Below are positions 20,698 to 51,625 of a stretch of 60,590 nucleotides of DNA, piece by piece (positions within the stretch are counted from its first letter, which is position 1; every line of letters begins with the position of its first letter). The notes beneath the pieces are model-generated. The model made no database searches. It was not told the origin of the DNA and saw nothing but the letters and a program-made list of their open reading frames with translations. The DNA is taken from NCBI GenBank assembly GCA_964016885.1, contig CAXHJY010000934.1, forward strand, positions 1-60,590, read 5' to 3'. A program made the position numbers and the translations under genes. The stretch comes from Eledone cirrhosa (taxonomy: Eukaryota).

Positions 20698-20967
20698 CAA
20701 AAGTTCTATTTAAATTGTTGGGATACAGCAAGCAAATATTTTTATAACTGATATAAAGCACTCGACAAGTATTTGGAGTATATATCCTGATGTCTTCCAA
20801 AAGTAACGGTTGTATTTTGAAAGGGTACGTCAATGTTTATTTATAAAACTGGTATATATTGTATTTTGTCTGATGAAGGCATACCATAATTTAACATGGT
20901 ATCCTTGAAATATGTATAATAAAATATATATGGTTTTATAAATATAGTTTCCATTTGTTAATATCGT
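20698..20967. mobile_element. Non-autonomous PLE-derived insertion (minus-strand tail joined to a plus-strand hammerhead segment); family of 37081-37503
   Basis: 20698-20785 aligns with 37081-37165; 20838-20967 aligns with 37374-37503; TA tracts on both sides. Confidence 0.78.
20862..20926 (+). ncRNA. Type I hammerhead ribozyme motif
   Basis: Stem I tattttgt/ataaaata; CTGATGA 20870-20876; stem II aggcataccat/atggtatcctt; GAAA 20907-20910; short near-palindromic stem III ATATGTAT; cleavage triplet AUA; distal helix tttataaaac/gttttataaa. Confidence 0.8.
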
Positions 20968-21117
20968 ATATATATATATAATGTGTGTGTGTGTGTACGT
21001 ATGTATGCGTGTGTGTGCGCGCATATGTATGCGCGTGTGTGTATGTCGTACGTACAAGTGTCAATAAGTGAGTTTTTTTTGATTTGTTTTTTTTTGCGCG
21101 AGGACATAGAAATAATC

Positions 21118-24100
21118 GGGCTGGATGCCCGATCGCGCAGTTAAACCACTGGGAGTGAAGAACCCCTAGCCCTTGTCAGGGCATTCTTCTAGGAGAAGGC
21201 ATTTCAGGAAACTGGGTTAACTCCGACATAAAACCTGCGGCTCAGTAGTTACCGATGATGTTGATCTTTTCTTTTCGGGTTATAGCTACTGTCGCTCAGA
21301 GAGTGGGATTGGCTCAGTGCACAGTCTTTCCTCACTTTAAAAATATTCGTCACGCACAGGCATTGCACGAGTGCATTAATAATTATTATAATAGTTTACT
21401 ATTATTATTATTATTACTATTATTATTACTTTTTTTTTTTTTTTCCCATTCAATGATGTTCCAGAACAATATAAAAGAGATCATTGGCAATTTAGGTTCT
21501 GGAACAAAAAAGATAATTGGCAATAAGGGCAGCGGTCCCAGGTTATCACAGCCTGGGCCCGCTCGTCATCGTGCCATTGTAATAGAGCCAAACAAGGCAT
21601 TTAGTCTTGGCTGCTGGAACGTACGGACGCTGCTTGACAGGGATTCCTTGGAGCGTCCTGAGCGAAGGACCGCTCTTGTTGCAAAGGAGCTTCGACGTTA
21701 CGATCTTGACATCGTGGCTTTATCTGAGACGAGGTTAGCTGGAGATGGTCATCTTACAGAATTTTGTGGAGAATATACATTCTTCTGGAAAGGAAGAGAT
21801 GAAGGAACCAGAAGAGAGGCTGGGGTGGGATTTGCTGTTAAGACTGTACTTGTGAATAAATTAGAAGAATTCCCAGTAGGGATTAGTGAGCGTCTTATGT
21901 CCATGAGAATTCCGCTGGACAAAGGAAGATATGCGACCCTGGTGAGTGTGTATGCTCCAACTATGAATTCTGTCGATAAAGAAAAAGTGTCCTTTTACCA
22001 TGCCTTGAAAGGTGTTTTAAGAAATATCCCTCAGGCAGACAAAGTCATCGTGCTTGGTGACTTTAATGCTAGAGTGGGTAGGGATATTAACACATGGAAT
22101 GTAATCGGAAGGCATGGGGTGGGAAAGTGTAACAACAATGGTATGCTCCTGCTGCAGATGTGTGAGGAGCTGGATCTGTGTGTTACCAACACCATATTCC
22201 AACAAAAGAACAAATTCAAAACCACATGGATGTATCCTGCATCTAAGGAATGGCATCTTTTGGACTACGTCCTAGTCAGGATGCGTGACAGACGGGATGT
22301 GCAGTGTGTTCGTGCTCTTCGTGGAGCTGAGTGCTGGACGGACCACCGCCTGGTACGCGAAAAAGTGAAACTAATCACTAAACGTAAAATCCGGACTCCT
22401 GGTGTTGCCCTGCCCAAAAGATTGAATGCTGCTCGTCTTAAGGATAAAAATGTGAAGAGGACATTGGAAGAAGAGATGCAGGCTGCAGATCTTGGTGAGG
22501 ATTGGCCGATCCTTAAAAAGTCGGTTTATGATGTAGGCAGGCGTGTTCTGGGATTAGTGCAGAGAAAACATCAGGACTGGTTTAATGAGAATGATGTACA
22601 TATAGAAGACTTGTTGGCTGATAAGAGGCGTGCTCTGTCACGCTACTTGACGGCAAAACCACAGGAGAGGAATACGTTGCATGAGGAACTCAAGGATGTA
22701 AAATCACGTGTTAGGCGGAGTCTTTCTCAGATGAGGGATCAGTGGTGGAGTGAGAAGGCTGGTGAGATACAAACTGCATCAGATTCCAATAACACAAAGC
22801 TGTTGTACAGTCTCTTGCGTGAGGTTTATGGACCGTCTTCTTCTCTGGTGATACCGCTTCGCAGCAAGGATGGCAAAGAACTTCTTCGTGACTCACAAGG
22901 AATTCTACGAAGGTGGCGAGAGGACTTTGATGATCTTTTGAATCAGCCGTCTGTCGTCAGTGAAGATTTCCTCAATATCATTCCAGAAAGTCCTGTGAAA
23001 GTAGCTCTCGTAGAACCTCCGACGCTGGTGGAGGTTGCAGTGGCTATTTCGAAGCTGAACAGTGGAAGATCTCCAGGTATGGATGGCATACATGCTGAGC
23101 TCCTACAATATGGTGGTGAGAGACTCCTGCAACATCTTCACTCTTTGTTTGGCAGGATATGGGCTAATGAATCCGTACCTGAGGACTGGAGAGATGCAGT
23201 AATGGTGGTCTTGTACAAGGGAAAGGGTAACAGGAATGATTGTGGGAACTACAGAGGTATATCATTGCTTTCTGTCGTAGGGAAAGTTTTATGTAGGGTG
23301 CTTCTGGACCGTCTGCCGACACACATTGCAGATTGTGTTCTTCCTGAAAGTCAATCTGGTGTTCGTGCTGGACGCGGCACTACTGATATGATCTTCTCAG
23401 CTAGACAGCTCCAGGAAAAGTGCATGGAACAAGGCTTGGATCTGTATCAGGTTTTTGTCGATCTGACAAAAGCTTTCGATACTGTTAACAGAGATGCATT
23501 GTGGAAGGTTCTCCAGAAACTTAGTTGCCCTGATAAGTTCCTTGCTTTAGTTAGGTCTTTCCATGACGACATGAAGGCTTGGGTTAATGTCGGAGGTAGA
23601 ATGTCGGAGCCTATCTCAGTAAAAAATGGAGTGAAACAGGGGGATATTCCAGCACCGACCCTGTTTGCAATATACTTTGCAATGGTTTTCTGTATTGCAT
23701 TCAGGAATTGCGAGCATGGTGTTTACATCCGATATCGAAGCCCAGGCAGCATATTTAACATCAGGCGCTTTGCTGCGAAGACAAAAGTATTTACATCAAT
23801 CATAAGAGACCTCTTGTATGCAGATGATTGCGATCTTGTAGCGCACACAGAGAGTGATATGCAGCACATTTTGAATGCATTTTCTGACGCTTGCACTGCT
23901 CTAGGATTGACTGTCAGTCTCAAGAAAACCGTCGTCATGTACCAACCTGCCCCTGGTAAGCAGTACACTGAACTAAATATCGATGTGTATGGTAAACGTC
24001 TTGGAGTGGTTGATCAGTTTGTCTACCTGGGAAGCACTGTCAATCTATACAGCAACCTTGACAGTGAAATCTCACTTAGGATTAGGAAAGCAAGTGATGC

Positions 24101-50358: not shown

Positions 50359-51175
50359 CAGCAGTAGCAAAGAGAAAATAGTCGACAATTTTCGACAAAC
50401 CCTATTTTCTTTAAAAAAAAAAAAAAGATGTTAAAAGGTATTTAAATGTTGCATAAAATAATTTTAAAAATTATTTAGAATATCTAAATACAGAAAGTAA
50501 TAAAGATAATAATAGGAAAATGTATTCTACCAAAATTATAAAACATGTACAGTACTTCAGTTTATACAATGTTTTTAACTTTTTTCTTTGGAGCATATAT
50601 GAAGAGTTTGTGGGCGCTTCCTACTATGGAACATCCTACATACAACTGACCATATGAGAAACAGCCTCTTCTAGGTGAAGCCGTACAACCAGCAGGGTTT
50701 GACCTTGGTACTTGTTAATGGTCATTGTGTAACTGACTCTCACTAGGAATTGCAATCGAAACGAAAAGGGTCATCTGTTGGTATTAGCGGCATTCTAGGT
50801 ATAAATATGATGCATCCCTTACCACATCCACTGACGATTTCAGCTTCGATAATGTAATTCAATCATAACCATATGTGTCCCATTGCACACGCTTGGCTGA
50901 TCTAGGTTTCTGAGAAGCCTGATGACTGTGCCCTTATCCAATTCAAGGTTGTGTGGCGGCCTACTGGGCGGTTCCATACCTTTGAGAAATCCAACGGGAT
51001 AATGAACAATATCGTCCTCGTCGACAACTTCCGGGATCATTTGTGAGAGATTTCTGTTGATGGCATTGATGGTGATATTTGGGGTGGAGGGAGGATTGCA
51101 CTTTTATACAGCCATTCTTCGTTGGAATGGTGGATTTCGAAATTGGCGAACACTTGATTAATTAAGCTATCAACG
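50359..51175 (-). mobile_element. Decayed Helitron fragment: PIF1 helicase C-terminal half and 3' region
   Basis: YPVGFLKGMEPPSRPPHNLELDKGTVIRLLRNLD..VCNGT; QFLVRVSYTMTINKYQGQT; VGSAHKLFIYAP..VKNIV. Confidence 0.82.
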
Positions 51176-51269
51176 TATATGCATACGTGTGTGTGCGTGT
51201 GCGCGAGTGTATAAATATATATATATATATATATATATATATATATATATAAATTATATATAAAAGTAT

Positions 51270-51625
51270 ATATGAAGTATTTCCGTCGGAAAGGTACAGG
51301 AAAAAAGAGTGCTCTATGTAGGCTACAGAGCTTATTAGTTATATAATAAACAACATAAGATAATTATTTCATTTACCAGTGGTTTCTTGACGGCAGATAT
51401 TTATATCTGTCTTCAGTCGTAAGAATGAATAAATAACATGGTGTTTTTATTAAATATGGATTTATTAAATCCATTTATTAAATCCATTTATTAAATCCAT
51501 TTATTAAATCCATTTATTAAATCATATTATTCTGACGACTGAAGACAGATATAAATATCTGCCTTCAAGAAACCACTGGTAAATGAAATAATTATCTTAT
51601 GTTGCTTATTATATAACTAAAGATA
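51270..51625 (-). mobile_element. Small PLE-derived inverted-repeat insertion with hammerhead, tail and a 13-bp tandem in the spacer
   Basis: IR ~51335-51425 / 51529-51620; about five copies of atttattaaatcc at 51459-51523; tail motif at 51307-51314. Confidence 0.72.
51524..51590 (+). ncRNA. Type I hammerhead ribozyme motif
   Basis: tatt-CTGACGA(51532)-c-tgaagacagatat aa atatctgccttca-a-GAAA(51569)-cc act gg-TA-aatga; the other arm has CTTACGA but a better stem I (ttcatt/aatgaa). Confidence 0.68.

Follow-up and report, generated by a model that had tools for sequence, protein, structure and literature searches.

Introduction

For the Penelope-like element (PLE) Poseidon of Anolis carolinensis, the portions of Frangieh et al. 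2024 (PMC11167929) drawn on here describe the tail of an insertion as the stretch between two internal starts of reverse transcription, with both target strands nicked and extended; hammerhead mutants still insert, and the Poseidon protein needs RNA downstream of the two starts. For the Hydra clade of PLEs, the portions of Craig et al. 2021 (PMC8557442) drawn on describe 5'-truncated, inverted, one-tailed insertions as well as elements residing in (TA)n, including Hydra-1_Obim of Octopus bimaculoides. In the excerpts of the wider literature used, opposite-strand pairs of hammerhead ribozymes 100–700 bp apart have been ascribed to truncated PLEs (PMC4209133), and retrozymes have been proposed to be PLE-derived (bioRxiv 10.64898/2026.07.22.740005), with a range of unit lengths of ~150–450 nt (PMC7229834) and, in metazoans, without a motif that points to a partner (PMC7761336). 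The repeat annotation of Octopus vulgaris lists active Penelope families, the word 'hammerhead' being absent from the part of it drawn on (PMC13282606). The present account concerns insertions of this kind in Eledone cirrhosa, namely nine short elements, named E1–E9 by their order, and one of 10.5 kb, all within contig CAXHJY010000934.1 of a 3.0-Gb assembly (GCA_964016885.1). 'The window' denotes this entire 60.6-kb contig (60,590 nt), which is abundant in microsatellites and long interspersed nuclear elements (LINEs).

The system is real and abundant and is mostly of a known kind; the additions made here are Hydra-type families that lack an open reading frame (ORF) and a candidate start signal that they share with the enzymes. 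Probably, the nine insertions comprise six ends of coding PLEs and three gene-less fragments, all of them put in place by Hydra-type enzymes that would begin reverse transcription a short way upstream of a bulged stem-loop shared among families. With less assurance, we lean towards a wider proposition, in which a single RNA stem-loop with a bulge (CUC/GAG, 2 nt bulging on the 3' side), conserved and present in duplicate, fixes both starts of reverse transcription in the Hydra clade, has been retained in corals and sea cucumbers as well as in this genome and, by itself, would let ORF-less hammerhead units of unrelated sequence move in trans.

Nine insertions in (TA)n tracts

A sequence-only reading of the window had described nine short insertions in or against (TA)n, each with a tail on one side, an oppositely oriented copy of the adjacent segment and, usually, a hammerhead. 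All nine segments are present, each in or beside (TA)n and each with a single tail (Table 1). Arms, tails and similarity among elements of the window were judged by self-BLAST, which finds the inverted copy in eight of the nine, the exception being E1 (20698–20966), where there is no duplicated arm and the body is opposite in orientation to the tail. E1 is a sister subfamily of E6, and because these two (starting at 20698 and 37081, and matching at 87–89 %) are the only pair among the nine that align, the earlier count of eight families is correct. The boundary of E4, formerly placed at 35257, lies at ~35211.

Table 1. Coordinates of the TA-associated insertions of the window and of the frames within the 10.5-kb element; assignments follow motif and sequence comparison
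Feature	Coordinates	Strand	Assignment	Hammerhead core	Tail	Arms	Bulged stem
E1	20698..20966	tail -, tail-less hammerhead body +	truncated Hydra-clade PLE end	20870 (+)	20698-20785 (-)		20779-20760 (-)
E2	30316..30722	+	3' fragment of ORF-less 1376-nt unit family	30525	30644-30722	within 30316-30643; inverted arm 30316-30397	30653-30688
E3	33113..33310	-	truncated, inverted Hydra-clade PLE end	33241 (-)	33113-33182	33183-33308	
E4	35211..35908	-	fragment of ORF-less 697-nt unit family		35211-35338	35339-35906 (97.9 % identity; 280-bp near-perfect hairpin)	
E5	36570..37038	-	nearly one unit of ORF-less 483-nt family	36832 (-)	36570-36673	36674-36773/36939-37038	
E6	37081..37502	-	young truncated, inverted Hydra-clade PLE end	37267 (-) and 37404 (+), one in each arm	37081-37168	37169-37502 (99.4 % identity)	37161-37142
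E7	37546..37727	+	end of old Hydra-clade PLE		37644-37727	37546-37643	37654-37677
E8	49563..50120	+	young truncated, inverted Hydra-clade PLE end	49965 (variant)	50031-50120	49563-50030	
E9	51270..51625	-	truncated, inverted end of decayed Hydra-clade PLE; microsatellite-like 3' UTR	51532 (+), in + arm		51335-51620	51331-51311
10.5-kb element	38454..48993		Hydra-clade PLE insertion, (TA)n both sides	48651 (variant)	48857-48993	~4.9 kb, 97.8–99.6 %	48864-48944
625-aa open frame of the 10.5-kb element	42110..43987	-	5'-truncated; RT (YRDD), CxCx5C linker, GIY-YIG-type endonuclease				
Second copy of that ORF	43788..45203	+	inverted, more truncated				

Genome searches were made with E2–E9 as queries, E1 being covered by the E6 query, and 40 candidates were scored for each; L-numbers (e.g. 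L087) denote individual genomic loci. None of the eight families is single-copy, as all 40 scored candidates matched for every query, on many contigs. Across all eight families, 200 of 221 loci outside the window (best hits only, overlapping loci kept) have a (TA)n or (TC)n tract at the 3' end, against a background of 5.5 % for (TA)4 to occur no farther than ~25 nt from a position taken at random, and an inverted copy is found within 1.5 kb upstream in 113 of the 221. A 400-kb genome sample, composed of 40 evenly spaced 10-kb tiles and also the source of the hammerhead descriptor hits given below, contains 22 insertions of the eight families, 15 of them TA-adjacent, with E2 and E5 unrepresented and none of the three E7 copies next to TA; with two further window families included, the ten families account for 34 insertions, 26 being TA-adjacent. 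Pieces of Hydra-type ORFs occur in 8 of the 40 tiles. Scaled from this sample, the insertions number on the order of 10^5 genome-wide. A miniature inverted-repeat transposable element (MITE) or other DNA transposon was considered as the source and rejected, given the one-sided tail, the variable 5' ends and the links to ORFs.

Different families nest in TA tracts at each other's ends (L086, L091, L204, L213 and window 36570–37727), such nesting yielding clusters, e.g. E5–E6–E7. Decayed and partly duplicated pieces of the E8 family lie beside E2, at window 30769–31205.

Five families with coding relatives

When autonomous PLEs sharing each tail were sought, a copy joined to an ORF for reverse transcriptase (RT) and GIY-YIG endonuclease was found for each of five families, and, judged by sequence continuity, E1/E6, E3, E7, E8 and E9 (six insertions) are truncated ends of ORF-bearing Hydra-clade PLEs. 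In L087, the order is inverted tail-less repeat, repeat with tail, a 666-aa open frame (the N-terminal part of which lies in another frame), 3' untranslated region (UTR), and repeat with tail, the terminal repeats matching E6 at 96–99 % and E1 at 86–89 %. The E3 tail runs into a PLE ORF in L101 and L202, and an ORF piece of 87 % identity is joined inverted to E3 in L106. For E8, the full-length locus L319 consists of repeat with tail, an ORF from 2881 that is disrupted, and tail-less repeat, with a period of 3215 nt; in another five loci, the end of the ORF is located ~800 nt upstream. The UTR of the E7 family is continuous with a decayed Hydra-type ORF in L360, and an ORF piece of 76 % identity is joined inverted in L361; for E9, ORF end, UTR and E9 terminus follow one another collinearly in L313, interrupted by a nested insertion, and L205 has an ORF of 82 % identity joined inverted. 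The partner ORFs of E7 and E9 are decayed and matched by tblastn only, and these two links are weaker than those of the other families. Two candidate links were rejected: in L204, E5 is nested at another family's end rather than joined to the Hydra ORF, and in L212 a TA tract separates E9 from the ORF.

The sequence-only reading had allowed for either truncated PLEs or true non-autonomous families, the latter to be given up wherever a family was simply the 3' end of a long PLE. Both kinds occur. The five families just described are 3' ends of ORF-bearing elements, so the non-autonomous reading fails for them, and the description of an ORF-less population holds for the three that remain (E2, E4 and E5).

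Placement of E1/E6, E3, E7, E8, E9 and the 10.5-kb element in the Hydra clade is by motif definition. RT and C-terminal GIY-YIG are combined in a single ORF, with YRDD and Y[IV]GxT in both L087 and the window ORF; these two also carry the CxCx5C linker together with CxxC/CxH around conserved E and N, the linker being present in L202 and L319 as well. DKT, a modified DKG, occurs in the frames of L087, L202 and L319, and RWR rather than RWK occupies the equivalent N-terminal place in three families. Inspection of the list of C/H motifs, made without alignment to CCHH-bearing references, revealed no CCHH endonuclease motif. Atlas neighbour clusters at 0.96 carry RVT_1 and GIY-YIG, and the octopod Argonauta hians supplies the best named protein match, at 41 %, of the window PLE ORF family. 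The Naiad clade was rejected, since the endonuclease is C-terminal and hammerheads are present.

The 10.5-kb element, which the sequence-only reading had passed over, has the same design as the nine inserts, with a single tail. An assembly artefact was rejected as the origin of its palindrome, for the arms differ, the tail is one-sided and short copies of the terminus exist elsewhere. In each of its arms, ~1.6 kb of the 3' UTR is microsatellite-like (39273–40917 and 46396–48030); E9 and E3 have similar 3' UTRs, so these elements also spread microsatellite-like DNA. A decayed Hydra-type ORF fragment lies at window 10463–11133 (+). Another type of PLE-like ORF, presumably Neptune-like and distinguished by its Cys linker, is found at L086:2498–3826 and L091:3–1334, with copies of 85–97 % identity in several tiles.

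Three families of ORF-less units

E2, E4 and E5 are families of ORF-less units in partial tandems. Natural partial tandems give unit periods of 1376, 697 and 483 nt, in which ATG frames do not exceed 87, 77 and 52 aa, respectively. Among copies that read through the second end, none of 55 (22 of E2, 14 of E4 and 19 of E5) has a PLE ORF within 700 nt, as against four of the five read-through copies of coding families that enter an ORF in the same test. What follows the tail instead is the next hammerhead of the same family, at ~1150 nt in E2 (range 897–1548), ~178 nt in E4 and ~187 nt in E5, the distance being measurable in 10, 9 and 15 read-through copies. The spacer behind the E2 tail leads back to the E2 terminus, and most of 25 spacer-matched loci show the order repeat, spacer, UTR, repeat. 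Partial tandems with two hammerheads occur in L323 and L047, and no array above ~1.6 units was found among the loci examined, which do not amount to a genome-wide scan.

Fixed ends and the bulged stem-loop

In the mapped families, copy ends are bimodal, a tail-less end and a tail end, both sharp, lying 65–137 nt apart and beside (TA)n. Past the second end, coding families continue into their ORF, whereas the sequence of ORF-less families returns to the unit from which it came. Whether a family codes or not, a stem is found 5–19 nt downstream of most mapped ends, consisting of four base pairs (N-[C/U]-U-C / G-A-[G/A]-N'), a 2-nt 3' bulge that begins with U (U followed by U, C or A) and a variable upper stem. 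At the first end, the stem is present in most read-through copies of seven of the ten families: E6 (17/19), E2 (32/47), E5 (22/24), E7 (12/21), E8 (30/42), E9 (24/34) and a further family (11/15), with E4 at 7/15. At the second end, it is found in 1/1 copies of E6, 3/4 of E8, 5/10 of E4 and 7/18 of E5, and in coding families this second stem lies directly before the ATG.

The offset from stem to end is near constant within a family. The outer pair covaries, being A-U, G-C or U-A, and the second pair is C-G, or U-A in E5. Apart from E2 (3/32) and the further family (5/11), the stem almost always belongs to the local minimum-energy fold. When tails were defined by architecture alone, yielding 194 units in 47 clusters, many of them single-copy, the stem was found in 12 of 37 clusters unrelated to E1–E9, compared with 0.3 expected from shuffles. 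Beyond this genome, the exact motif occurs in three of the six Hydra consensi of File S7 of PMC8557442, as read by eye from that file: Hydra-2_Amil, from a coral, and Hydra-2_Ajap, from a sea cucumber, have it at their 3' end, and in Hydra-1_Ajap it precedes the ORF in two copies. Hydra-1_Crog and Hydra-1_Amil, in the same file, have part of it. Position, covariation and recurrence of this kind suggest that the bulged stem-loop is likely the start signal for reverse transcription.

A (TC)n run separates the element from (TA)n in 6 of 26 E4 copies at the tail-end junction and 4 of 46 E2 copies at the tail-less-end junction, as well as in 1 of ~450 copies at the other 14 anchors, examples of TC junctions being L154, L155 and L047. 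The terminal 9–29 nt are duplicated in L195, L267 and L273. Both the runs and the duplications suggest stuttering at initiation.

Hammerhead ribozymes

The hammerheads reported by the sequence-only reading are there in kind, all eight families having the type I fold, and incomplete in many copies, a full core (CUGANGA..GAAA) surviving in only five of the nine window copies (E1, E3, E5, E6 and E9). Under a strict descriptor that requires a 5-bp stem I, three of the nine pass. A search of the 400-kb tiles with this descriptor gave 13 strict hits, compared with 0 on reversed or complemented control strands, and 12 of the 13 are followed by (TA)n at no more than 450 nt, against a background of 27 %. 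The stem III segment is largely self-complementary in all eight families and is a 10-nt palindrome in E5. The hammerhead is canonical in the terminal repeats of E1/E6, E3, E7 and E9, and family copies of E2, E4 and E5 pass the descriptor with a palindromic stem III and one hammerhead per unit. The E2 copy in the window has a G>A change in GAAA at 30578; in the window copies of E4 (35211) and E7 (37546), the truncation runs through the ribozyme, of which relatives have an intact form. For E4, the truncation falls just 3' of the family hammerhead, and E7 is cut and inverted inside hammerhead stem II, an intact hammerhead of its family being present in L243. Because copies truncated through the ribozyme exist, it is probably not the mobilization tag that the sequence-only reading had taken it to be; that reading's microsatellite-targeting, hammerhead-bearing, Penelope-type system is otherwise supported, and the bulged stem at the ends would be the better candidate for the tag.

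A variant core, CAGAAGA (U4A), is shared by the whole E8 family, and GAUA replaces GAAA throughout the family of the 10.5-kb element. Among the matches listed from an Rfam E-value scan of the window (150 of 348) there was no hammerhead family; nearly all were microRNA-like hairpins or simple repeats and all were under the gathering score. Another TA-flanked multicopy family at window 49113–49512, with six insertions in the 400-kb sample, has a hammerhead-like core at 49267, and neither an inverted arm nor a bulged stem was found in it.

Proposed mechanism and alternative explanations

We infer the following course of nicking, priming, joining, mobilization in trans and ribozyme activity, the Hydra starts being modelled on those of anole Poseidon. 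The GIY-YIG domain would nick (TA)n, and the RT, held at the stem-loop, would prime on the short A/U-rich tract before the stem, this tract pairing with the nicked (TA)n. Two priming events, one per stem, would take place on opposite target strands, and the two cDNAs, each stopping early, would join head to head, so that the resulting palindrome has one tail and no more. Families with units of 483, 697 and 1376 nt would have lost the ORF, kept the hammerhead and both stems, and been copied in trans. The hammerhead may process tandem transcripts as a dimer, by way of its palindromic stem III, and is probably not needed for insertion.

A number of observations weigh against this scheme. The first-end stem is rare in the family of the 10.5-kb element (3/14) and in E3 (1/19), and the second-end stem is weak in E2 (1/21 by the strict rule, the upper stem usually being a single pair) and in E3 (0/2). 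A pattern search for a second stem behind the E7 tail gave 0 matches, and two pattern matches behind the E9 tail were rejected for their overlap with or adjacency to an unrelated LINE. Only five of the nine window copies pass the strict stem rule, 25 of the 37 other clusters are without the stem, and the motif was not seen in Hydra-1_Obim in the consensus file read by eye (PMC8557442). The search window of the stem descriptor was widened after architecture-defined tails had been inspected, which leaves the hold-out not fully blind, and the E2 read-through copies were picked with the spacer itself as query. Seven of eight isolated hammerhead regions are no stabler than shuffles (z above -2), and Pfam and PDB sequence searches of the PLE ORFs gave no significant match. 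BLASTN and TBLASTX comparison of the E2, E4 and E5 units with six coding elements showed no real similarity, and, with no alignable similarity to a coding family, the partner enzyme is one that we infer; with 40 candidates scored per search, coding copies of E2, E4 or E5 could escape if they are rare.

The last point also suits the view that all eight families are truncated ends of coding PLEs, with the short units being products of local deletion that do not amplify. This holds for five of the eight, and single or opposite-strand paired hammerheads have been read as truncated PLEs before, in the portion of PMC4209133 used; as an account of all eight it is very improbable, given that unlinked loci, spread over many chromosomes, agree in junction and unit length and that no read-through copy of E2, E4 or E5 enters an ORF. 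Treating E4 and E5 as classical non-LTR (long terminal repeat) retrozymes, spreading through circular RNA and rolling-circle reverse transcription, is a less remote and still unlikely alternative: short tandem units, a type I hammerhead with palindromic stem III, the lack of an ORF and a length of 483 nt, near the range of 150–450 nt, all suit it, and the fixed PLE-type ends, tails and inversions of the copies, together with the absence of arrays above ~1.6 units in the loci examined, do not.

The stem might have a role other than starting reverse transcription, acting as DNA in endonuclease recognition or resolution, as an internal promoter or translation start, or persisting as an ancestral relic. 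Tail DNA was needed for recognition by the Drosophila Penelope endonuclease (as cited in PMC11167929, in the portion used), the second stem stands just before the ATG in coding families, and a clean stem is missing from several families; we nevertheless think such a role doubtful, as covariation, tolerance of G-U and a variable upper stem suit folding of a single strand, each family has a fixed distance from stem to copy end, and ORF-less families keep the stem, so translation is not its only use. There remains the origin of the inverted arm, which may have arisen by fold-back, one cDNA annealing to itself and being copied back until the first stem blocks, with a single priming. Arm spacers of 0–4 nt in E3, E4 and E6 fit tight hairpins, E7 turns inside hammerhead stem II, and arms are closer to each other than to other copies (98.9 % vs 93 % in E4). 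Copies without inversion can nevertheless have tail-less ends too, as can the longer arm (six of seven mappable E2 copies), which fold-back from a tail-bearing cDNA could not produce. Both ends could be mapped in 7 of the 25 long E2 loci, each with exactly one tail, carried by the short inverted arm in six and by the long arm in one; this pattern favours two priming events over simple fold-back, which we consider improbable.

Comparison with described systems

Like Poseidon, in the portions of PMC11167929 used, the elements described here have AT-rich targets and would share the two internal starts of reverse transcription that define tail and tail-less ends, as well as the nicking of both target strands. 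The Poseidon starts fall within a stem-loop that is AC-rich and lies inside the ORF, whereas here the ends are found upstream of the ATG, a short way 5' of another bulged stem, the duplicated CUC/GAG one. With the Hydra-clade PLEs, as far as described in the passages of PMC8557442 searched, they share the C-terminal GIY-YIG, DKT, the CxCx5C linker, CxxC/CxH and a hammerhead in the terminal repeats, as well as insertion into (TA)n, partial tandems and an inverted 5'-truncated copy with one tail. They differ in that units are 3.2–3.8 kb or more rather than <3 kb, tails 65–137 rather than 30–40 nt, RWR stands in place of RWK, and many families coexist. Neither ORF-less Hydra families nor an end-defining stem-loop was found in those passages, and no description of either was found in the literature searched, a scope that lies outside subscription papers and Repbase notes.

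The ORF-less families resemble metazoan non-LTR retrozymes, as excerpted from PMC7229834, PMC7761336 and bioRxiv 10.64898/2026.07.22.740005, in being repeats without an ORF, with a type I hammerhead and a proposed mobilization by, or derivation from, PLEs. Unlike them, the units measure 483–1376 nt, outside the retrozyme size range, form partial tandems rather than multimers and have PLE-type ends; and in contrast to the retrozymes of PMC7761336, for which the portion used reports that no conserved motif indicates the partner, E2, E4 and E5 share a motif with Hydra PLEs. They are also like the non-autonomous Chlamys elements, e.g. MRC1, which the passages of PMC8557442 searched describe as ORF-less PLE derivatives with pseudo-LTRs and head-to-tail insertions; Chlamys elements are green-algal and generally resemble autonomous families at the 3' end, whereas no similarity to a coding family is alignable here beyond structural motifs.

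If the proposed role of the stem is true, the stem would be the recognition motif so far missing from the link between retrozyme-like elements and PLE enzymes, and would account for the PLE tail. It would bear on how the RTs of PLEs, a sister group of telomerase, pick internal start sites, and on which enzymes move ribozyme-bearing non-coding repeats in animals. A motif of ~20–40 nt that most families have, coding and ORF-less ones among them, is testable by mutation and rescue, and can serve as a marker for finding and orienting such elements in annotation. The insertions, for their part, seed palindromes inside TA microsatellites.

Other elements of the window

The remainder of the window includes several further mobile elements. 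A 1249-aa endonuclease-RT open frame recognized by Pfam occupies 21249–24998 (-) and is presumably RTE-like, and three related LINE copies, 77–96 % identical and one of them inverted, lie at 14173–20126 and 51670–54494 and are taken by us to be L1/Tx1-like. A broken RT element at 26177–29757 (+) has a C-terminal RPDI-type motif and is assumed to be R4/Dong-like. Additionally, there are a helicase fragment at 34026–34388 (-), presumably Helitron-like, and a helix-turn-helix fragment at 34860–35058 (+), which we assume to be Tc1-like, both scoring under the Pfam cut-offs.

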